A stretch of 64,000 nt of DNA from an uncultured Chloroflexota bacterium (GCA_964435115.1 CAYSYM010000003.1:66421-130420); one strand, 5' to 3'; numbered from the stretch's first letter, positions 51,270 through 64,000 are shown. Numbers and translations: made by a program. Notes: generated by a model from the sequence alone, not told the origin.

Positions 51270-51698
51270 TCAGCGGCCGATCAGGCGGTCCAGGCTCGGC
51301 ATCGCCGGATCCACCCAGGGGAGCTTGGGCAGCTCGCCGAAGGCCCGGTCGGCCGAGACCAGGGCCTCGACCCGCTGGTTGATCGCGACGGCGGCCAGCA
51401 CCGCGTCGAAGGCGCCGAGGGCGGGATAGCGCTCGAAGAGGGCCAGGCCAAGGTCGAGGTGCTCGGCGCGCGTGACCAGCAGGGGGAGGGCCGCCATGTA
51501 GTGGCGGGCGAGGGCGACGGCATCTGGGCGCGACCGCCGGCGCGCTCGCACGTGCACGAACTCCTGGACGACCTCGATGGTGGTCGTGGCCTCGACGCGC
51601 CCGTCGCCGTGAGCCCGGAGCAGCCGGCGACAGGGCTCACGCAAGGGGTGCTCCGCGCCGACGGCGTAGCTGAGCACAGTGGTATCGAGCAGGATCAC
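51270..51698 (-). CDS. vapC: PIN-domain toxin VapC
   Basis: MILLDTTVLSY... with conserved acidic residues; 142 aa. Confidence 0.8.
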   Translation of the reverse strand: MILLDTTVLSYAVGAEHPLREPCRRLLRAHGDGRVEATTTIEVVQEFVHVRARRRSRPDAVALARHYMAALPLLVTRAEHLDLGLALFERYPALGAFDAVLAAVAINQRVEALVSADRAFGELPKLPWVDPAMPSLDRLIGR

Positions 51699-51946
51699 CT
51701 CTGGAACCGGTCGTGGGCGGCATCGAGCTCGCGGCGAAGCTCGGCCGGATCGGCCGGAACGGATGTCGGCTCGCCTGCCAGGATCGCGTCGATGGCGGTT
51801 CGGCGGACCTCGGCGTCGGCCGGGAGCCGGTCGAGCGCCTCGCGGATCACGGCGGCGATGGAGACCCCGCGCCGCTGGGCCTCCTGCGTCACCTTCTGGT
51901 AGCGCTCGTCGTCGAGGAGGATCTGGACCCGGCGCGAACCGTTCAC
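51695..51946 (-). CDS. vapB: VapB-type antitoxin (RHH/CopG-like)
   Basis: 83-aa ORF overlapping vapC by 4 bp; VSIAAVIREALDRL ribbon-helix-helix. Confidence 0.65.
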   Translation of the reverse strand: MNGSRRVQILLDDERYQKVTQEAQRRGVSIAAVIREALDRLPADAEVRRTAIDAILAGEPTSVPADPAELRRELDAAHDRFQR

Positions 51947-52353
51947 GTCGCTACCGACGCGCCATCTAATTCAATCCCGATGGCACCGGCGATGCGGATC
52001 AGGTCCGCGTCAGCGACGAGCAACGCAGCCCCTCGGCGCCACGCGACGGCGGCGATCATGCAGTCGACCACCCCGCGAGGGGTGACGCCGTTCGCCCGAC
52101 ACCGCCGGTAGATGTGCGCGGCACCATCGAAGTCGACCGCCGTGTCAAACGGCAGCCACACGAAGCGCAGGAGCAGCCGACGCAGATCCGACGCGCGTGC
52201 ATCACTGCGGGCACCCGCGAGGACTTCCATCATGACCGGCTCGGTCACCGCAAGCGCACCTTCGGTTGCGATCAGCTCGGTCAGGCGCCGGTCGATTGGA
52301 CTGCCGGTCGCCCGGTCGTACTCGACCCAGGTTGACGTGTCCGCCAGTATCAC
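51943..52353 (-). CDS. vapC: PIN-domain toxin VapC (second copy)
   Basis: MILADTSTWVEY...; 136 aa. Confidence 0.8.
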   Translation of the reverse strand: MILADTSTWVEYDRATGSPIDRRLTELIATEGALAVTEPVMMEVLAGARSDARASDLRRLLLRFVWLPFDTAVDFDGAAHIYRRCRANGVTPRGVVDCMIAAVAWRRGAALLVADADLIRIAGAIGIELDGASVAT

Positions 52354-52562
52354 CCCAGGTCGGGGGGCGCGGTGTCCGGGGGCAGCTTCAGGATGGCGTG
52401 CGCGCCCCGCATCGCCAGGGCCTCTTCGCGCGTCATCGGCTGGCCCACCAAGTGGCGCAGCGCGAGATCAACGGCTTCGCTCTTGGTGCGCACACCGTAG
52501 CGGGCCATGATGGCTCGCACGTAGCTGTCCTCGAGCTCGATGTTCGTCCGCACACGACCCAT
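52350..52562 (-). CDS. vapB: VapB-family antitoxin (second copy)
   Basis: MGRVRTNIELEDSYVRAIMARYG is typical of type II VapB; 4-bp overlap with vapC. Confidence 0.65.
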   Translation of the reverse strand: MGRVRTNIELEDSYVRAIMARYGVRTKSEAVDLALRHLVGQPMTREEALAMRGAHAILKLPPDTAPPDLG

Positions 52563-52695
52563 ACACCAATCATACACCTTCACGCGGCGGACTGGGGGGC
52601 TGTCACCCGCAACTGGGGAATCAAGCCGACCGACGGAGCGGGCGACGAAGCTCCGGTGGCGGGTCGCCAACTACGTGGCTTAGTATGTCTCCAGA

Positions 52696-53243
52696 ATGTT
52701 GGGGAAAATCCAGCCTTACAAAGACACGAATAGGCACGGCCCTGACCGCCAGGCGCTCTTCGATGTCGCCAGCGAGCAGTACGGCTACTTCACCGCGGAC
52801 CAGGCGGCCCGGTGCGGCTACGCGCGCGACATGCTGACCTATCACGCCAGGCGGGGCACGTTCCAGCGGGGCACCGCGGCGTCTACCGCTTCCGGGACTA
52901 TCCCTCGTCCCCCCGCGAGCACGTCGCCGCGGCCTGGCTCGCCGTCGGCAAGGACGTGGCCGTGATCTCCCACGCGAGCGCGCTCGACCTCTGGAACCTC
53001 AGCGACGTCATCCCCGATGCCGTCCATCTCACGGTCCCCCGCGCCCGGCGCTCCCGCGCCAACCGGCCCCCGCCGGGCGTGGTCGTCCACACCACCGCCC
53101 GCTGCTGGGGCGATGGCGAGGTGCGCAGCCACGAGGGCCTCCGCCTCACCTCGCCCGAGCGCACCATCCTCGACGCCGCCCAGGCCGGCACCCAGCCCGA
53201 GCAGATCGAGCTGGCCATCGCGCAGGCCCTCCGCCGCGGCTGA
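52696..53243 (+). pseudogene. AbiEi-family (type IV TA antitoxin-like) transcriptional regulator, frameshifted and orphan
   Basis: Frame 1 gives ...QYGYFTADQAARCGYARDMLTYHARRGTFQRG, and after a +1 shift near 52870 frame 2 gives GVYRFRDYPSSPREHVAAAWLAVGKDVAVISHASALDLWNL. Together they form a colinear AbiEi_4-like N-terminus. No AbiEii nucleotidyltransferase is adjacent. Confidence 0.5.
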
Positions 53244-53300: not shown

Positions 53301-53840
53301 CTACTCGTTCGCCGGCGGTGACGCCGTAGCGAACAGGGCGCTGATGCGCTCGGCGATCGCCGGGGCGTGGGCGATCGCCATAGTCGGCGGTAGGATGGTT
53401 TGGTCCTGGGGGTGGGAGGCCAGGTTCCTGAGCTGTCTGAGGGTATCCCAGCGTCCGTGCTCGTCGGTCGAAAGGACGCCTTGGTCGCGCAGCCACGCCA
53501 GCCGCTTCTCGAATGACTGCGTCGAGGGCGGCGCGCCCAGATCCATGCAGCGGCGGGCCACCGCGGCCTCGGCGACCCGGAACATCTGCTCCAGGCCCAG
53601 CGTGTAGAGCGGGTAGAAGAAGTAGCCGTAGAGGAGGGCGCCGCGCGCGACCTCGAACAGCCTGTGCAGCTCATCGGGCGCCGCGTCGGATAGGCGGATG
53701 GCCAGGATGCGACACGCCCAGTCCTCTCCCGTGATCGGGCGGGGATACCCCTCGGGTGAGAGACTGGCGATGAGCGTAGTGACCGGGTCAGGCTCCAGCC
53801 AGTTCTCCGGCGTCAGGTCTTTGAATCCCCGGCGACTCAT
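53301..53840 (-). CDS. Hypothetical protein with a HEPN-like Rx4H motif (last gene of the defense operon)
   Basis: 179 aa; RQLRNLASHP (R-x4-H); 9-nt gap after the DUF499 stop. Confidence 0.4.
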   Translation of the reverse strand: MSRRGFKDLTPENWLEPDPVTTLIASLSPEGYPRPITGEDWACRILAIRLSDAAPDELHRLFEVARGALLYGYFFYPLYTLGLEQMFRVAEAAVARRCMDLGAPPSTQSFEKRLAWLRDQGVLSTDEHGRWDTLRQLRNLASHPQDQTILPPTMAIAHAPAIAERISALFATASPPANE

Positions 53841-53849
53841 GACATCCGC

Positions 53850-57185
<3,336 letters not shown>

Positions 57186-57196
57186 GCTGCGCCTCC

Positions 57197-57529
57197 TCAG
57201 CTATCGGGCTCCCGGCCGAGCCGTGCTTGCAGGAATGGGACGTCGTAGTGAACCGTGTCCCAGACCAGATCCCAGTTGACGTTGATGTAGTCGTGCACGA
57301 GGCGGTTCCGCATCCCGACGATATCGGCCCACGGAATATCCGGGTAACGGGCGCGGAATTCGGCGGACAGGCGGCGCGCGGCCTCGCCGACGATCATCAG
57401 CTGACGGACCACCGCGTCCCGCCGGAGGCTGTCGCCGATGAAGCTCGTCTTGTCCAGCCCGCCGACGTACTCCCGGATGAGAGCCAGAGCGTCCAAGATA
57501 TGCGCGCGGTAGACCTCGTCACTCTTCAT
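57197..57529 (-). CDS. hepT: HepT-like HEPN toxin (DUF86)
   Basis: MKSDEVYRAHILDALALIREYV...RNRLVHDY (Rx4HxY). Confidence 0.75.
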   Translation of the reverse strand: MKSDEVYRAHILDALALIREYVGGLDKTSFIGDSLRRDAVVRQLMIVGEAARRLSAEFRARYPDIPWADIVGMRNRLVHDYINVNWDLVWDTVHYDVPFLQARLGREPDS

Positions 57530-57848
57530 ACAGGACGATCCGGTCGGACTCGATATACGGGCGGACATGCCGGCTCAGGCCCTCTTCGGTTGTCAACTCC
57601 ACCGGGTGACCGAGCAGCTCCGACAGCTCGCGCTCCAGGCCGAACCAGCGCAGCCCCAGGGGCGGGCGGCCCTCGCTGGGCCGCAGGCGGAGCAGCAGAT
57701 CGATGTCGCTGTCCGGGCGCTGCTCGCCGCGCGCGAACGAGCCGAACAGCTCGATGCGAGACGCGTACGGCCGCAGCACGGGAACGATTTTCGCGCGGAG
57801 CTCGTCCAGCACCGATTTCGGGGGACCGGTTCGGGCGTTCATGTTCAT
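57519..57848 (-). CDS. mntA: MntA-like nucleotidyltransferase antitoxin
   Basis: LFGSFARGEQRPDSDIDLL (GSxxRG...DxD). 11-nt ATGnnnnnnTGA overlap with hepT; the ATG overlaps the DUF1156 stop as ATGA. Confidence 0.75.
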   Translation of the reverse strand: MNMNARTGPPKSVLDELRAKIVPVLRPYASRIELFGSFARGEQRPDSDIDLLLRLRPSEGRPPLGLRWFGLERELSELLGHPVELTTEEGLSRHVRPYIESDRIVLYEE

Positions 57849-60800
57849 GCGAACAGCTCCGTCTGTGCGGGGCGGTCGGTGCCCGCCCCAGCGGCCAGCC
57901 TGGCGATCTCCGGCCAGGCGACGACCAGACTGTTGTAGGCCAGCGCTTCCTGTGCCCAGCGTTTCCGCTCACAGATGACGTAGAGCCGGTAGGCGAGGTC
58001 CCGCGCCACCTCGCCCAGTCCGCCGACCTTCCCCAGCAGCTCGGCCGCCCCCTGCTCACCGTCCTTCTCCAGCCGGCGGATGAGGTGCTGTGTCACCTCC
58101 CACACCGTCAGGCGCGGGTCCTTGGTGGGGTCCCAGCCGGCCGGCAGCCCCTCACGACCCAGCAGGCGCACCTTGCCGCCCCGCGCCCGTAGGATGCCGG
58201 CATCTTCCAGCACCCGCACAGCGGTGTCCTTGGCCTTCGAGAGCGTCTCGGCCACCCCGTAGGGGCCTTCGGCCACGCCGTAGTGCTCGAACCAAGCGAT
58301 GGCCCAGCGGGTGTGGTTGTCGTACTCGCTCTCCTGCTCGGCCAGCACCTGATCGAGCGCCTGGTTTATGAGCCCCAGCGCGATGCGTACTGAGACGTGC
58401 TCGCCGCTAGCGTCCACAACCTTGGAGTAACGAGAGAACACCGCCATGCCCGGGCCGATCGCTGCCTGGGCTAGGTCAACCGGTGCGATGTTGCCGTGCT
58501 GGAGTTTTCTCAGAGCATCAGGCAGCTCTCTCCTGAGCGCGTCCGTGAACTCGCGTCGTGTGGCGAGCCCGGTGGTCGATGGCCGCGGGCGGCAGACGAG
58601 GACGATGGAGGAGGCGAGCGCGTTAGTGCCGATACCCACGCTCCGTGCTCCGCGCTCGGTCCGCACCGGCCATGTGCCGGTAATCGCAAACCCTGCCTTG
58701 AGCAGGCCTTCCAGCATCGTCTCCCACCCTGTGGAGACAATCACTGTTGAACTGTTGCTGTCCGCACCGTCCTGGTCATCTGCCTCAGCCTGCCTGAAGG
58801 CGTAGAACACGGTCAGCGGGTAATCGGGGTGGCCAGCGGCGCGCATCTGCGCGAACGCTTTGCCCAGTCCCTCCTCGAAGAAACGCTTCGCTGCCTCTTT
58901 GCTACCTCCGAAGCGGTATGGCGTCGCAATGAGCTCCTGTGCCTTGGGTGTGAGGAGCGTGCTGAACAGGTCTGGATAGAGTCTTCCCAGCGAGCGCCGG
59001 AGCCAGACGTAGAAGAAGTCCGCCAGATCTGCATACCCGATATTGTCGTAGTACGGTGGGTCGGTGCAGACGAGTGGGTTCGAGACACTGTCGACAGCAA
59101 CTGTCGCGTCAAGCTGCTTGGCCGTCGCCCTAGCTTGTTTGGCTCTTGGTGCTTCGGCGATGGTCTTCGCCACCCATTCCGTTGCGGCTGTCCAATTCGC
59201 AGTCGATTCGCTGAACGCATTGCATTCAGCAAAATCCCAAGTCATAGGAACTGCTTGTCGAGCAAAGCCATTCCGGATGAACTCGCCACTCTGTGCCCAA
59301 GTCGCAAGTGTGTTCCAGTAATCCACACACTTATCAAGTGCGAATGCCAGATAGGTTGCCACGGCGTCGGCATACGCAGTCGGACCCACGCCGCCGTTGA
59401 CCAACGGTGCGCAGTCATCGGGTAGGCCCGCGGATCTGGCGTCGCGTTGCACCTGCTCTCGGACCTCATCCAGGAGGCTGCTGAAGGTAGTAAGTGCCGC
59501 GAGTTGTCGGGACGTAAAGAGATCGCGATGCTTGGTCATGCCATAGAGCTGCACCCTGAAGCCGAGCGCCTGCTCGGGTAGCTCAGTTTCCGGCGCATCG
59601 GTCGGCTGTGCGTTGGCCGCCGTGCGTTCGTGTTCTTCATTCGGAGCTACATACACGCGCCCCCGCTGGCCCTCGCCCACAATCGCCATGAGCTGAACGC
59701 CCATGCGGCCGGCTTTCCCCTCAGCACGGATGTGGTCGAACGGCACAGGGGCGGTGCAGACGATGCATGTTGCGCCGCGCCGGTTCACCGTGCCGTCGCG
59801 CGGCATCCCCTCACCGGTCCGCACGTCGAAGCGCACCGTCTTGGCTGCCCGGTCCACCACCGGCTCAACCCAGGCTTTCTTCCCCGGTTTGCTCGACAAC
59901 CAGAATGAGCGGACCAGGGGCATCTGGGCGCCACAGGCCGGGTTCGGGCACTTCACCGTCCGCGCCCACAGCCAGGCGATGACCGTAGCCTCGCCGCCCC
60001 CATACTCCTTCGGCAGCTGCACCTTCGGATAGAGGTGGCCAATGCGGCGCTCAGCCTCATCGCGCATCCATTTGCCGTAGTAGCGAACGTCTGCCGCCAG
60101 CCCAGCGGCACCCTTCCAGGTAGGAGGAAATAGGAAATAGGAGGTAGGAGTTAGCGGTGGTCGCGCATCGCGGTCAGGACGACCTCGGTGGTCGCTATTT
60201 ACTATTTTGCTATTTTCTATTTCGCCATTTTCTATTTCCTGTTTTCCTATCTCCTGTCCTCGCGAAAGTTGCGCCGCATCGTCGTCAGCATCCTGCCGAC
60301 CTCGTTCAGCAGGACTCGAAGGCGCTCGGTTTCCGCTGCCGGGAACCAGCCAATCTCCTCGCACAACGTTAGGAATGTCTCCGTCTCCGCCAGCGATCCC
60401 TGCGCGACCGCCAGGAACTGCGCCTTCTCCTTGCCCGACTCCCGCGTCCACCCCTCCGCGATGTTCGCCGGGATCGAGACTGCCGCCCTCGTAATCTGCG
60501 ACCGCATCCCGTAGGTTTCCTCCCGCGGCAGCAACGGAGCCAGCCGGTACACTTCCCTGGCCGCCTCCATCGCCTTCTGCCACACCTTCAACTCCCGGTA
60601 ATGCATCGCTACTTCCTATTTCCTGTCTCCTACTTTCTGGGTTCACCGGCGGGAGGTTGGCGAACTTCGGCGGGATCTCGACCAGCGCCTTGCTGATCAA
60701 CACCGCCACTGGATTGAGGTCGCTCGCGTGCGCCTCCAGGCCGAGACGCTGCGCCTCGAGCGGGATCGAGCCGCCGCCGCAGAAGGGGTCGAGCACCGGC

Positions 60801-61198
60801 GGCGGGTTGCCGCCGGTGGCGGCGTGGATCAGCTCCCGCGCCGTGGTCAGGATCTCCTCGTTGTTGCTGTTCTCCCACGGCACCAGCCGCTCGATGAACT
60901 GGAATAGCTTTCTCCGCCGCTGCTCGCCTACTGGTAGGCTGGCCCACTCCGGACCGCGATCTTCCGGCAGCGGTAGGCGGTCGATGCGCTCGAGCAGCGC
61001 CTGGGGGACGCCCGCCTGGTCGGGATCATCAATCAGCGAGGCGAAGAGCACCGCCCGGCAGGCCGCCAAGGGCCGCCGCGCCCACCACAGGTGCAGCGTG
61101 GAGGGGTGTCCGTGCCGGATGGACTTCTCGCGGGCCGACTCGCGGTTGATCGCCTCCAGCGGCAGCGCTACCTCGATCAGCTTTTGGCGATAGCTCAT
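57845..61198 (-). CDS. DUF1156 domain protein (anti-phage-associated adenine-methyltransferase-like), with an in-frame 171-codon insertion
   Basis: N-terminus MSYRQKLIEVALPLEAINRESAREKSIRHGHPSTLHLWWARRPLAACRAVLF is the canonical DUF1156 start. The reading frame continues through the AT-rich insert at 60122..60634. Confidence 0.8.
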   Translation of the reverse strand: MSYRQKLIEVALPLEAINRESAREKSIRHGHPSTLHLWWARRPLAACRAVLFASLIDDPDQAGVPQALLERIDRLPLPEDRGPEWASLPVGEQRRRKLFQFIERLVPWENSNNEEILTTARELIHAATGGNPPPVLDPFCGGGSIPLEAQRLGLEAHASDLNPVAVLISKALVEIPPKFANLPPVNPESRRQEIGSSDALPGVEGVAEGDGGGQGSVPAGSVAAAGGNLRDAVADYEGGSLDPGEHRGGVDAGVGQGEGAVPGGRAGIAGGDGDIPNVVRGDWLVPGSGNRAPSSPAERGRQDADDDAAQLSRGQEIGKQEIENGEIENSKIVNSDHRGRPDRDARPPLTPTSYFLFPPTWKGAAGLAADVRYYGKWMRDEAERRIGHLYPKVQLPKEYGGGEATVIAWLWARTVKCPNPACGAQMPLVRSFWLSSKPGKKAWVEPVVDRAAKTVRFDVRTGEGMPRDGTVNRRGATCIVCTAPVPFDHIRAEGKAGRMGVQLMAIVGEGQRGRVYVAPNEEHERTAANAQPTDAPETELPEQALGFRVQLYGMTKHRDLFTSRQLAALTTFSSLLDEVREQVQRDARSAGLPDDCAPLVNGGVGPTAYADAVATYLAFALDKCVDYWNTLATWAQSGEFIRNGFARQAVPMTWDFAECNAFSESTANWTAATEWVAKTIAEAPRAKQARATAKQLDATVAVDSVSNPLVCTDPPYYDNIGYADLADFFYVWLRRSLGRLYPDLFSTLLTPKAQELIATPYRFGGSKEAAKRFFEEGLGKAFAQMRAAGHPDYPLTVFYAFRQAEADDQDGADSNSSTVIVSTGWETMLEGLLKAGFAITGTWPVRTERGARSVGIGTNALASSIVLVCRPRPSTTGLATRREFTDALRRELPDALRKLQHGNIAPVDLAQAAIGPGMAVFSRYSKVVDASGEHVSVRIALGLINQALDQVLAEQESEYDNHTRWAIAWFEHYGVAEGPYGVAETLSKAKDTAVRVLEDAGILRARGGKVRLLGREGLPAGWDPTKDPRLTVWEVTQHLIRRLEKDGEQGAAELLGKVGGLGEVARDLAYRLYVICERKRWAQEALAYNSLVVAWPEIARLAAGAGTDRPAQTELFA
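60122..60634 (-). mobile_element. In-frame insertion element (about 513 bp) with terminal repeats, carrying a four-helix-bundle protein gene
   Basis: AT-rich relative to its surroundings. The left end is (GGAAATA)n-like ggaggaaataggaaataggaggtaggag. An internal (CTATTTY)8 tandem repeat forms an inverted partner. CTATTTCCTGT..TCC direct repeats sit at 60228-60260 and 60617-60634 and flank the 4HB ORF. Host-frame translation is low-complexity (QEIGKQEIENGEIENSKIVNS...). Confidence 0.5.
60247..60606 (-). CDS. Four-helix-bundle protein (TIGR02436; 23S rRNA intervening-sequence protein / Avd-like family)
   Basis: MHYRELKVWQKAMEAAREVYRL...ETYGMRSQITRAAVSIPANIAEGWTRESGKEKAQFLAVAQGSLAETETFL matches the family pattern (LxVWQKA...YGLTSQLRRAAVSIPSNIAEG...QFL.IA.GSL.ELET). 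119 aa; GGAAG RBS. Confidence 0.75.
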   Translation of the reverse strand: MHYRELKVWQKAMEAAREVYRLAPLLPREETYGMRSQITRAAVSIPANIAEGWTRESGKEKAQFLAVAQGSLAETETFLTLCEEIGWFPAAETERLRVLLNEVGRMLTTMRRNFREDRR

Positions 61199-61253
61199 GT
61201 GCTCCTCGTCTCTTTCACGGTGCGCCCCGGACGTTCGCTTTTTCGACCAGCCA

Positions 61254-61643
61254 TCACAACCCAAGCTGCCGGCGGACGAAGCCGACCAGGTCGCGGGCGA
61301 GCTGCAGGGCCTGCTCGGCGTCGGCCACTGGCGGCGCAAGCGGCCCACCCGGATAGCGGAATTCGGTCGCCAGTGGGGTCAAGATGCGGGCCGTGGTCGC
61401 GAATTGACTGAACTCCGGCTGGATCGCCTCGCACAGCGGGAGCACGAGGTTCAGGTTATGTGTCAGCGGGAAGGTGCGATCGTGGGCGGCGAGGAACGCC
61501 TTCAACGCCTTCTCGGCGGCCTGCTGCGCATGATAGGCGACCATATCCGGGAGCGGCACTGCCAGCAGGGCCTCCGCCGCCTCGAGGTCGCGCTCCGCCC
61601 GCGCCAGCCAATCCTGTGCCTCGCGCAGCGCTTCAGGCCGCAT
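61254..61643 (-). CDS. HEPN domain protein
   Basis: Start MRPEALREAQDWLARAERDL...; typical HEPN (AYHAQQAAEKALKAFL). 11-nt overlap with the upstream MNT gene. Confidence 0.6.
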   Translation of the reverse strand: MRPEALREAQDWLARAERDLEAAEALLAVPLPDMVAYHAQQAAEKALKAFLAAHDRTFPLTHNLNLVLPLCEAIQPEFSQFATTARILTPLATEFRYPGGPLAPPVADAEQALQLARDLVGFVRRQLGL

Positions 61644-62010
61644 AGAGCAGCCTCCCCTCGCGGAGTATGGTCCCGGGCAGGGACGCGACCGCTGGCGCCC
61701 GCGCGTCGAACTCCGCACGGGTCATGAAGACGACCTCCAGGGGAAGCCTGAGTGGGGTGAGCTCCGCGTAGGCCGCCGAGGCCAGACGATACGTGGGCTC
61801 CGCCGCGGCCGGCACAACGACGAGCAGATCGATATCACTGTCCGGCCCGGCCGTCCCGCGCGCCTGCGAGCCGAAGACGTAAATCCGCTCGGGGCGAAAC
61901 GCTTCCACCAGTCGCTGCACCGCGCGCGCCAGCTCCTCCACCTGGGTCGGCGGCAGGTGGGGCAGCTCGCTCCGGATGTGTCCCTCGAATCCTCCTATCT
62001 CACTGCTCAC
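61633..62010 (-). CDS. Minimal nucleotidyltransferase (MNT) domain protein
   Basis: IYVFGSQARGTAGPDSDIDLLVVV. The GTG start at 62010 overlaps the helicase stop as GTGA, with a GGGGAGAG RBS. The 5' part of the 223-aa ORF is rejected. Confidence 0.65.
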   Translation of the reverse strand: MSSEIGGFEGHIRSELPHLPPTQVEELARAVQRLVEAFRPERIYVFGSQARGTAGPDSDIDLLVVVPAAAEPTYRLASAAYAELTPLRLPLEVVFMTRAEFDARAPAVASLPGTILREGRLLYAA

Positions 62011-64000
62011 TGCTCTCCCCTCGCTCCTCGATGGCAGCGGATCAGCTCGGCGATGTCGAAGATCACGCCCGTGGCCGCGAAGTCGGGCTCGCGCTGGAAC
62101 GGACAGGATAGGTACGTCGGCTGGCTCGCCTGGTCGTCGGCCACCTCGACGAGAGCCAGGAGGAAATCCTCGGGCTTGTTGAGCGCCGTCAGGATCTCGT
62201 TCTTCGTCACGGTGACCGTCCGCGCCCCGGCGGCGCGGCCCTTGACCTCGATGAAGCGCAGCTTCCCCGTGCCGGGGATGCGCGACTCGACGTCGTAGCC
62301 GCACTTGAGGGCGCTCACGTCGCGCGGCTCGAACCCCAGCCGTCGCTCGGCGTCCAGGACCGCCTCCATCGCGAACCGCTCGACGCGCGCTGTCTCTCGC
62401 GCGACCTCGTCAGGTTGCGGTGCTGGCTGCTCGCCCTTCAGGCGGGCCAGAAGCCCCGCCGGGACCACCAGCGCCCCGCCGATCGCCACCGGTGGCAGCG
62501 GCGACAGGCGGCGCTCCTGCTCGAGCTCCTCCAGCCGCTTCTGCAGCCGCGCCTGCAGCTCGTCCGCCCGCTGGCGGGCGCGGGCCGAGTTGAGGCGCGG
62601 CGTCCTGCCGGCCTCCTCCTGCGCCCTCAGCTCGAGGGCGCGGTGGTCCCAGTAGATGATCTCCTTGGTCAGCCGGTCCTGCACCGCCGCCATCGTCTTG
62701 GCGACCAGCTCCTCCTTGCGGCGCCGCACCTCCTCCAAGTGCGGCGGCACGAGCTCCTCCACCGCGTAGGCAAGCGCCTGTTGCTCCAGGCCGGGGCCTG
62801 AACCCGTCGAAGGGTCCTCGCGCAGCCAGGACGCGTCGAGCAGCGGCTCAACCAATAGCTGCTCGTCCTCCGCCAGCGGCCGGTAGTCCAGGTAGGGGGC
62901 GTAGCCTGCCGAGCGTACCGCTCCATGCTGGTCGATCTCGACGAACTGCATCTGGCGCGAGACCACGCGCCGGTTGCCGGCGCCGTCGGTGCGCGCGTCC
63001 TGGATGCCGTGCTCCAGGTAGAACAGCGCCCGCGCCTCCTCGCCCGAGTCGTCGGGGTCCACCAGCACCGCGCCCCGCTTCGGCAGGTCCCGATACCGCT
63101 CCAGGATCAGGTCGATCGTCGCGTCGAGGAGCGGGTGGCCGGGGCAGACGAAGGCGGCGAGCGGCTTCCCGGGGACGCTGATCAGCGCTTTCTCGAAGGT
63201 GATCCGCTCGTAGCGTGGCAGCACCGGGTCCCGCGTGCCGATCAGCCGGGAGCGGTTCCGGACGGCGGCCGGCACGTGCGTGATCTCGTAGCGCTTCGGC
63301 TCGCGCTCCCGCACCGTGCCGCCGAGGAGCTTGAACGCTTCCAGGAAGAAGCTGGCGATGAAGTGCGGCTGCAGGCGGCGCGCCTCGGCCCGCTCCATGT
63401 CCTCGCGGATCGCGCGCACCTGGGCCGCGTCCAGCGAGTCGCGCGCCAGCGCCCGTTCCTCGAGCAGCTCCTGCAGGTGCTCCCGGTCGAGGGCGTCCTC
63501 CACCACCCGCGTGAGGTGTGCCCGCACCTCCGGTTGATCGCCGTAGCGAACCGCCTCGATGAGCAGCTCGCGCAGCGGGCGGCTCTCGAACGTCAGCTTG
63601 CCGAGGATGTCGAAGACCTGGCCGCCCAGGGCCTTCCGCTCCTCCTCCAGCTTGTGCAGCAGCGTGTGGTAGACCTCGCCCTCGCGCGTCTCAGCGGCCA
63701 CGAGGTTCCAGAGGTGGCAGACCTCGGTCTGGCCGATGCGGTGGATGCGGCCGAAGCGCTGCTCGATGCGGTTCGGGTTCCAGGGCAGGTCGTAGTTCAC
63801 CATCAGGTGAGCGCGCTGGAGGTTGATCCCTTCGCCGGCGGCGTCGGTGGCCACCAGCACCAGCACATCTCTGTCCTGGGTGAACGCCTCCTGGGCCTTG
63901 CGGCGCTCCTCGCGCAGCAGGCCGCCGTGGATGGTGACCACCGCCTCCGGGATGCCCAGCAGGGCGCGGATGCGGTCGGCCAGGTAGTTCAGGGTGTCGC
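62007..64000 (-). CDS. SNF2-family helicase C-terminal half with a DUF3883 C-terminal domain; 5' end beyond the window
   Basis: Helicase C motifs (VLVATDAAGEGINLQRAHLMVNYDLPWNPNRIEQRFGRIHRIGQ), then long coiled coils, then a C-terminal RFIEVKGRAAGARTVTVTKNE...DFLLALVEV (DUF3883-like). Confidence 0.7.
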   Translation of the reverse strand, partial: DTLNYLADRIRALLGIPEAVVTIHGGLLREERRKAQEAFTQDRDVLVLVATDAAGEGINLQRAHLMVNYDLPWNPNRIEQRFGRIHRIGQTEVCHLWNLVAAETREGEVYHTLLHKLEEERKALGGQVFDILGKLTFESRPLRELLIEAVRYGDQPEVRAHLTRVVEDALDREHLQELLEERALARDSLDAAQVRAIREDMERAEARRLQPHFIASFFLEAFKLLGGTVREREPKRYEITHVPAAVRNRSRLIGTRDPVLPRYERITFEKALISVPGKPLAAFVCPGHPLLDATIDLILERYRDLPKRGAVLVDPDDSGEEARALFYLEHGIQDARTDGAGNRRVVSRQMQFVEIDQHGAVRSAGYAPYLDYRPLAEDEQLLVEPLLDASWLREDPSTGSGPGLEQQALAYAVEELVPPHLEEVRRRKEELVAKTMAAVQDRLTKEIIYWDHRALELRAQEEAGRTPRLNSARARQRADELQARLQKRLEELEQERRLSPLPPVAIGGALVVPAGLLARLKGEQPAPQPDEVARETARVERFAMEAVLDAERRLGFEPRDVSALKCGYDVESRIPGTGKLRFIEVKGRAAGARTVTVTKNEILTALNKPEDFLLALVEVADDQASQPTYLSCPFQREPDFAATGVIFDIAELIRCHRGARGEQ

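Follow-up and report, generated by a model that had tools for sequence, protein, structure and literature searches.

Layout of the hma operon

The 64,000-nt stretch of DNA analysed here, referred to as the window, derives from an uncultured Chloroflexota bacterium (GCA_964435115.1, CAYSYM010000003.1:66421-130420). At positions 53301–64000 its minus strand carries eight cistrons that run in the same direction and are spaced by 4- or 11-nt overlaps or by gaps of 55 nt or less (Table 1). They comprise the core genes hmaA, hmaB and hmaC of what is very likely an Hma defence system, two pairs of MNT and HEPN genes embedded between them, and a terminal gene for a further HEPN protein. The hmaB gene is interrupted in frame by an element resembling the intervening sequences (IVS) of 23S rRNA. 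The G+C content of the window is ~70%, hence spurious open reading frames (ORFs) are numerous; the eight cistrons show coding-type G+C content at third codon positions (GC3, 0.82-0.94) and strong family matches in Pfam and PADLOC.

The cistrons are tightly packed. A GTGA overlap joins hmaA and MNT1 (62007-62010), MNT1 and HEPN1 overlap by 11 nt (61633-61643), and 55 nt separate HEPN1 from hmaB. The start of MntA forms an ATGA with the hmaB stop codon (57845-57848). MntA and HepT again share 11 nt, counted from the ATG at 57529, and an independent gene caller picked the identical 110-aa HepT; gaps of 11 and 9 nt precede and follow hmaC. The gene boundaries are reproduced by independent calls on public contigs of 100% identity, including an identical call of MNT1 on L170-L172. 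Full-length hmaA, read from the identical contigs L170 and L171, encodes 1181 aa with a SNF2-rel_dom. The packing probably amounts to translational coupling. A promoter and terminator scan found no sigma-70-like promoter and no minus-strand terminator inside the operon, which is uninformative for a host of ~70% G+C and counts as weak evidence.

An earlier note, made from the sequence alone, had described co-directional genes with GTGA/ATGA and 11-nt overlaps and gaps of up to 55 nt, and had assigned the DUF499, DUF1156, DUF3883, HEPN and MNT domains. Coordinates and independent calls confirm the former, and profile searches in Pfam and PADLOC support all of the latter. The four HEPN-type domains were counted correctly: HEPN1, HepT, HmaC and the terminal 179-aa protein each bear an Rx4-6H motif, and both MNTs carry the GS...DxD motif (FGSFARG...DSDIDL in MntA). 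The 'nine or more' cistrons come down to eight in the window; the ninth ORF, nested within hmaB in another frame, had gone unnoticed. The 179-aa protein has 319 homologues of ~173 aa, about half of which contain PF13643 (DUF4145), a HEPN family frequent in restriction–modification (R-M) operons (PMC3710099). Judged by PF13643 in its homologues and by its RNLASH motif, it is a predicted member of the HEPN superfamily.

Table 1. Features of the hma operon, its nested element and its downstream flank, with positions counted from the first letter of the window
Feature	Position	Strand	Size and evidence
hmaA, C-terminal part (3' two-thirds)	62007->64000, truncated by window end	(-)	Helicase_C 6.9e-20; NOV_C (=DUF3883) 2.1e-20; PADLOC HmaA 1.5e-270
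MNT1, cargo 1a	61633-62010	(-)	125 aa, GTG start; NTP_transf_2 1.5e-13; PADLOC PDC-S09 3e-11
HEPN1, cargo 1b	61254-61643	(-)	129 aa; PF05168 2.7e-23; motif RTFPLTH
hmaB, DUF1156 N6-adenine DNA methyltransferase	57845-61198	(-)	1117 aa including 175-codon insert; DUF1156 2.9e-25; PADLOC HmaB E=0; motif I DPFCGGGS (FxGxG) and motif IV DPPY, read from the translation
IVS-like insertion element in hmaB	60116-60640	(-)	525 nt = 175 codons (hmaB codons 187-361); GC 0.59
5' terminal arm, purine-rich heptamer repeats	60609-60640	(-)	inverted repeat, 32 nt, 81% complementary
Nested IVP ORF, 23S-rRNA-IVS protein	60247-60606	(-), +1 frame versus hmaB	119 aa, four-helix bundle, Avd-like; PF05635 3.8e-36
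3' terminal arm, pyrimidine-rich	60116-60147	(-)	complementary to 5' arm
MntA, cargo 2a, predicted nucleotidyltransferase antitoxin	57519-57848	(-)	109 aa; NTP_transf_2 (PF01909) 8.1e-12; PDC-S09 1.2e-20
HepT (DUF86), cargo 2b, predicted HEPN RNase toxin	57197-57529	(-)	110 aa; PF01934 4.5e-28; RNRLVHDY = Rx4HxY
hmaC, Swt1-type HEPN fused to DUF499 AAA+/STAND-like ATPase	53850-57185	(-)	1111 aa; HEPN_Swt1 3.1e-32; DUF499 9.1e-33; PADLOC HmaC E=0; motifs RNDWAH (HEPN) and GGGKT
Stand-alone DUF4145-family HEPN protein, terminal cargo	53301-53840	(-)	179 aa; motif RNLASH; DUF4145 3.5e-4, under Pfam cutoff
AbiEi-like ORF	52746-53240	(+), convergent	165 aa; PADLOC 5e-41, partial profile coverage; no room for AbiEii
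VapB and PIN	52353-52670 and 51943-52353	(-)	toxin–antitoxin pair just downstream of operon
RHH and PIN	51698-51970 and 51270-51698	(-)	second downstream toxin–antitoxin pair

We consider it very likely that the locus is an Hma system, that is, a Type-1 R-M-like defence system related to bacteriophage exclusion (BREX-related, BR), and that it carries co-expressed toxin–antitoxin passenger genes as sporadic, swappable cargo. The assignment to Hma is based on the PADLOC matches of HmaA, HmaB and HmaC, on the matching Pfam domains and on the A-B-C order of the genes. The core genes are clustered in one direction with two genes in each inter-hma gap, and no ORF matched PglZ (Type-3 BR), HKD or DUF3780 (Type-2 BR) in Pfam or PADLOC. 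The literature on Hma reportedly includes Payne et al. of 2021 and 2024 and Liu et al. of 2024, and the name is said to have been given by the PADLOC group. An operon of HEPN-DUF499, methyltransferase and SNF2-DUF3883 genes was already described in 2013 (PMC3710099), and a 2026 classification lists it as Type-1 BREX-related R-M-like in 2446 taxa, with the HEPN-DUF499 fusion in 1370 (PMC12839542). The view that the triad is known only by genomic association and lacks a mechanism is therefore outdated: the system has a name, and in Halomonas Hma the helicase and nickase activities of HmaA are required for anti-T4 defence, while methylation by HmaB could not be demonstrated (PMC11232893).

Embedded cargo between the core genes

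Passenger genes between hma genes are common. They were found in 62.7% of 1485 Hma systems, in 376 different cassettes (bioRxiv 10.1101/2024.01.29.577857), and in 66.5% of loci in another study, which termed the locus a 'defence gene insertion hotspot' (PMC11232893). Embedded HEPN domains, some with MNTs, have been listed as 'backup effectors' of BREX and BR loci (PMC12839542), and both MNT1 and MntA match the PADLOC candidate PDC-S09, which is defined by embedding. Embedding of this kind was thus on record, contrary to the novelty that the earlier note had claimed for the architecture.

The distribution of the cargo was surveyed in the 80 best-matching species-representative Hma loci, among which the A-B-C order predominates. 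Gaps exceeding 300 nt separate hmaA from hmaB in 48/65 loci and hmaB from hmaC in 34/70. The main A-B cargo consists of AAA_21/AAA_15 ATPases and of GmrSD, Schlafen, HTH, PIN and TIR proteins. MNT genes occupy the B-C gap in 7/70 loci (with a PF05168 HEPN in 3 and HepT in 2), the other B-C cargo including ATPases, DUF4276 and DUF488. MNT is absent from the top A-B families, and no surveyed locus has an MNT between hmaA and hmaB, two MNT/HEPN pairs or a homologue of the 179-aa gene. Neither presence nor position of the pairs is therefore conserved across related loci. The PF05168-type pair lies between hmaA and hmaB here and between hmaB and hmaC in L008, L018 and L045. The closest HmaB relatives carry GmrSD (P0002, 71% identity) and a HATPase_c_3 protein (P0004, 67%), and neither has B-C cargo. 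Cargo proteins of other Hma loci reach just 34-48% identity to those encoded here, and the best HepT match (L075) is located outside any hma core. GC3 is 0.82-0.87 in the cargo genes, 0.92-0.94 in hmaA, hmaC and a housekeeping gene, and 0.90 in the 5' part of hmaB.

Short extra N-terminal fragments of DUF1156 (147-226 aa) were also observed in other Hma loci, within A-B cargo or upstream of hmaA (L085:3700-4143, L089:3702-4145, L082:968-1648). They hint that the conserved 5' end of hmaB serves as a recombination site for the exchange of cargo cassettes.

From this pattern we conclude that the HEPN/MNT pairs are, as far as gene neighbourhoods can tell, sporadic and swappable toxin–antitoxin or abortive-infection cargo co-expressed with Hma, and not integral cistrons. 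The verdict follows from their sporadic occurrence in the survey, the shift of position and the different cargo of the nearest relatives. That the pairs are instead integral effector or regulator parts of a distinct Hma variant, with the MNTs controlling the Swt1-HEPN of HmaC, for example, or the HEPN RNases being released upon Hma sensing, appears distinctly unlikely. The start/stop overlaps with hmaA and hmaB, the recurrence of MNT cargo in B-C gaps, always next to a HEPN-fused HmaC, and the proposed 'backup effector' status of embedded HEPN proteins all speak for such a variant. The overlaps, however, seem to be a general property of embedded cargo, since the MNT cargo of L045 and L071 overlaps hmaB just as tightly. 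The co-occurrence with HEPN-HmaC has no power, as 67/70 surveyed HmaC carry the fusion. The pairs are missing from about 90% of related loci, and those in the window come from different HEPN families. HEPN/MNT is moreover the most abundant free-standing toxin–antitoxin module (PMC7641770).

Several points weigh against the conclusion. The survey relied on crude ORF calling. MNT/HEPN is the most frequent single B-C cargo family, which leaves room for a functional partnership with HEPN-HmaC, and the tight coupling of three of the four cargo boundaries could signify partnership rather than tolerance. HmaB may be a weakened methylase owing to its insert, and the core system would then possibly not function as described below. 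As co-expression with Hma is plausible, the pairs may have a looser role as auxiliary effectors. Taken as a whole, the earlier interpretation holds for the domains, the packing and the number of HEPN domains, and fails for novelty, the lack of a mechanism and the integral status of the pairs; of what the note had named as refuting it, sporadic occurrence is seen in homologous loci, but the pairs are not visibly separately transcribed.

The surroundings of the operon point to a mobile island rich in toxin–antitoxin genes, which may be an integrated mobile element. Upstream (L171:1-3765), dnaN is followed by a divergently oriented serine recombinase in two pieces, a Resolvase and a Recombinase ORF; the same region also holds a 78-aa ORF that lacks an annotation and stops 2 nt short of hmaA. 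Downstream, the convergent AbiEi-like ORF was probably cut short at the border of the Hma island and survives as a remnant, and the two toxin–antitoxin pairs are followed by the housekeeping genes of an E1 dehydrogenase. A serine recombinase at the island edge and, in the immediate flank of the operon, two VapBC-type pairs and the remnant of AbiEi, together with a cargo GC3 unlike that of the core genes, would fit pairs that act purely as addiction modules, holding the island against deletion and contributing nothing to phage defence. We regard this as unlikely: seven of nine (7/9) tested Hma-embedded cassettes gave phage defence (bioRxiv 10.1101/2024.01.29.577857), HEPN RNases are common abortive-infection effectors (PMC3710099), and addiction and defence roles are not mutually exclusive.

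For the preferred reading, an Hma core with exchangeable passengers, the following biochemical steps may be inferred from the observed gene identities, motifs, packing and sporadic cargo. In line with their families, HmaB, as a DUF1156 N6-adenine methylase, would mark self DNA, HmaC, as a HEPN-DUF499 ORC/STAND-like ATPase, would sense or scan DNA or assemble, and HmaA would combine a SNF2 translocase with a PD-(D/E)xK nickase to translocate along and nick unmodified invader DNA, and the HEPN domain of HmaC could serve as a suicide RNase. Inter-hma gaps are established hot spots of insertion, and the locus would hold four independent passenger modules: the MNT and PF05168 HEPN pair between hmaA and hmaB, MntA-HepT between hmaB and hmaC, the DUF4145 HEPN gene after hmaC and the IVS-like element in hmaB. 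The MNT/HEPN pairs are most likely autonomous, with the nucleotidyltransferase keeping its cognate RNase inactive; HepT would be silenced through AMPylation by MntA of the Tyr in Rx4HxY, by analogy with the system in which MntA polyadenylylates HepT (PMC7641770). Once the antitoxin supply is lost, through infection or loss of the locus, the RNase would cut tRNA or mRNA, with abortive infection, addiction to the island or both as the outcome. Because of the start/stop overlaps the pairs would ride the hma transcript and be translated in step with the hma genes, forming a second layer, aimed at RNA, that is expressed together with Hma but is dispensable for it.

The operon is in this respect an ordinary case of 'guilt by embedding' that adds one further cargo combination to Hma, and it offers a clean natural construct for asking if embedded HEPN/MNT modules act with or beside the host system. 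Its greater value lies in the overlooked element within hmaB.

The IVS-like element in hmaB

The element occupies a region of HmaB that is of low complexity and lower G+C content. Its two 32-nt arms fold as a long terminal stem (z = -3.8). The 5' arm contains a Shine-Dalgarno-like AGGA/GGAG sequence directly ahead of the ATG of the IVS protein (IVP) ORF, and AT-rich 15-nt tandem repeats (60192-60257) precede the 3' arm. The IVP ORF was called as a separate gene on L170. The hmaB frame is open across the whole insert, with 0 stops against 8-9 in the other two frames. Selection follows the IVP (+1) frame: GC3 of the insert reaches 0.87 when read as IVP, compared with 0.42 when read as hmaB, and substitutions in IVP amount to 0.23, 0.15 and 0.46 at codon positions 1, 2 and 3. 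In the host frame the insert encodes a peptide of 78-85% disorder-promoting residues. An AlphaFold model of HmaB was poor overall (mean predicted local distance difference score, pLDDT, of 49; pTM 0.31; 13 sequences), and it gives weak support to residues ~195-362 being coil, as predicted there with the lowest pLDDT.

Other identities of the insert were considered and rejected. HmaB has no Hint or intein match in Pfam, and selection acts in the other frame, which argues against an intein. A group I or II intron is contradicted by the lack of any match at the Rfam gathering score anywhere in the window. An rRNA context was dismissed, as Rfam found neither an rRNA in the window nor a 23S rRNA around 19 IVP loci, and the frame preserved in five lineages speaks against a pseudogene.

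One could suppose that the Hma locus is decaying and no longer functional, the 525-nt insertion having inactivated hmaB and the small genes being debris. The insert does break the PADLOC match of HmaB into two stretches, one gene caller split hmaB (P0001, 740 aa; L170), and GC3 in the middle of hmaB is atypical at 0.71. Decay of the locus is nonetheless very improbable. Every ORF is intact with its catalytic motifs kept, the insert measures exactly 175 codons and spares the hmaB frame, as it does in four other lineages, and the top 120 homologues include no frame-broken hmaB fragment apart from the mis-called identical one. A loss of the methylase with the nuclease kept should, in addition, be selected against.

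The middle part of hmaB just downstream of the insert (59000-60115), corresponding to the target recognition domain (TRD), has the GC3 of 0.71 against 0.90 upstream of the insert. This drop points to recent recombination that replaced the specificity region and had a breakpoint at, or close to, the IVS-like element.

The insert recurs in other Hma loci. Most HmaB homologues are ~935 aa long and insert-free, but 6 of the top 120 carry a homologous insert at the identical site, between PPVNPxxR and SWxGAxGLA, and these inserts represent at least four lineages. The five distinct DNA sequences all contain an intact IVP ORF, always in the +1 frame, all have lengths that are multiples of three, and show 0 stops in the hmaB frame versus 6-9 in the third frame. 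Every insert-bearing lineage has an insert-free nearest neighbour. The IVP of the window shares 86% identity with its counterpart in a Meiothermus-type locus; the HmaB proteins of the two are just ~61-65% identical. The far higher identity of IVP suggests that the element was transferred rather than inherited from a shared ancestor.

Nor are such insertions confined to hmaB. A metagenome scan with an IVP alignment returned 80 loci, in 14 of which a long open frame encloses the IVP ORF; this frame is always -1 relative to IVP and never +1. The hosts of these nested ORFs are HmaB (5), other N6_N4/N6 DNA methylases (5), Ser/Thr kinases (2), the alpha subunit of DNA polymerase III (1) and leucyl-tRNA synthetase (LeuRS, 1). 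In the kinases the Pkinase domain is split by the element, and the LeuRS aligns with that of T. thermophilus on both flanks of an insertion of 137 residues, located between residues 363 and 368. In the loci with hosts other than HmaB (L100, L108, L119, L120, L124, L127, L132, L160 and L168) the nested ORF was missed by gene callers. Inverted arms of tandem purine-rich heptamers flank 48/73 testable IVP ORFs, nested or not. Each element has a heptamer sequence of its own, and the pairing of arms built from element-specific heptamers therefore amounts to extensive covariation in favour of the stem.

The LeuRS host (L108:2397-5372) also has extra short stretches in frame, such as 'GLGTGDWGLG' and 'PSPQSPVPSPQTPQ', which resemble heptamer repeats in translation and have no counterpart in the LeuRS of T. 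thermophilus. The heptamer of this locus, GGGGACT/AGTCCCC, presumably resembles the short tandemly repeated repetitive (STRR) sequences of cyanobacteria.

At the protein level, an exhaustive search of a representative library with the host-frame peptide yielded 12 proteins, and 8/10 of those scanned were DNA methyltransferases, of the DUF1156 family or other. An alignment of the host-frame peptides against an index of 5.8 billion proteins gave 1 match and did not recover the known insert-bearing HmaBs, low-complexity words probably saturating the candidates. On annotated cyanobacterial plasmids the IVP gene is labelled 'four helix bundle protein' or 'S23 ribosomal protein'. On plasmid pANA02 of Anabaena sp. 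90 (L174:3486-3854), the gene for an IVP homologue separates cas6 from cas4 in a type I-D CRISPR-cas operon; IVP elements thus occur between the genes of further defence operons too.

Mobile insertions of another kind were observed in HmaB ORFs. In P0033, at the same site as the IVP insert, and in P0103 (L088:5178-9008), at a second site, an IS200-like Y1 transposase (PF01797) is read in frame within HmaB; translation of its flanks gives 'ARASRP...' and, in duplicate, 'GRPRSQEEADA'. These appear to be another type of mobile insertion in hmaB that keeps the reading frame.

On balance we favour the view that the hmaB insert belongs to an undescribed class of mobile elements, the protein-gene counterpart of the 23S rRNA IVS; the literature searched, in which coverage is incomplete and most subscription journals are not included, contained no description of IVS-type elements in protein-coding genes. 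Such an element would consist of a PF05635 gene between inverted arrays of element-specific heptamers and would insert into protein-coding genes with its own ORF shifted by +1 against the host frame in every case. Translation would run straight through the element, which would form a disordered loop of the host protein, and the IVP gene would be expressed by internal initiation, with the purine-rich 5' arm possibly doubling as the Shine-Dalgarno sequence. It would recurrently invade one loop of HmaB, other defence DNA methyltransferases and even essential leuS and dnaE, while remaining invisible to gene callers. A selfish element would survive in genes lethal to lose, for instance an essential gene or the methylase of an R-M-like system, only with the host frame open; in an IVP gene rich in GC3, the -1 frame would be the one frame that is naturally poor in stops.

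Should the element prove general, the 23S rRNA IVS/S23p elements, long without an explanation, would represent a single niche within a wider family that is found in protein-coding genes as well. Overlapping frames and a tolerated disordered loop would constitute a new route by which selfish DNA persists in essential and defence genes. Nested ORFs and inflated host proteins would mark a systematic blind spot of annotation.

Comparison with known systems

The locus agrees with published Hma systems in the near full-length PADLOC matches of its three core proteins, the A-B-C order, the HEPN-fused DUF499 protein, the SNF2 helicase with a C-terminal nuclease of the restriction endonuclease fold and the passengers embedded between core genes. 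It differs from them by the in-frame interruption of hmaB by the IVS-like element and by the combination of two different MNT/HEPN pairs with a DUF4145 gene, a set unique among the 80 surveyed loci.

Type-3 BREX (BrxC, PglXI/BrxXI, BrxHII) has a homologous ATPase, a methylase with a nested TRD and a SNF2 helicase (PMC12839542), and the BrxHII profile of PADLOC matches HmaA at 6.6e-38. The locus, in contrast, lacks genes for PglZ, BrxA, BrxB and BrxF, its methylase has a DUF1156 N-terminus, and its helicase bears an active-type NOV_C nuclease.

The type VII toxin–antitoxin system HepT/MntA (Shewanella SO_3165/3166; PMC7641770) likewise places the MNT gene first, overlapping a DUF86 HEPN gene, and shares GSx(n)DxD in the MNT and Rx4HxY with an AMPylatable Tyr in HepT. 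Here, in contrast, the pair has no space for a promoter of its own and is joined by ATGA to the stop of a defence methylase; the HEPN of pair 1 is of the PF05168 type, with the Tyr absent.

The closest parallel in anatomy to the hmaB insert is provided by the 23S rRNA IVS with an S23p ORF of Coxiella and Leptospira (PMC4990558). Common to both are a length of ~430-530 nt (428 nt in Coxiella), a terminal stem of ~28-32 bp (28 bp in Coxiella), an internal PF05635 four-helix-bundle ORF and a patchy spread suggestive of horizontal transfer. The rRNA elements reside in helix 9, 25 or 45 of 23S rRNA, whereas the element described here sits in the protein-coding hmaB, has a length that is a multiple of three and leaves the host frame open. 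Because of these last two properties it is probably translated through rather than excised, or only excised, by RNase III.

The Rickettsia palindromic elements, reportedly described by Ogata et al. in 2000, are said to have no ORF of their own, in contrast to the element with its IVP ORF. Inteins splice as proteins and share the reading frame of the host, whereas the element has its gene in the +1 frame and no Hint domain. Both are nevertheless selfish insertions that survive in protein-coding and even essential genes by preserving the frame, and in this they resemble the element in hmaB.

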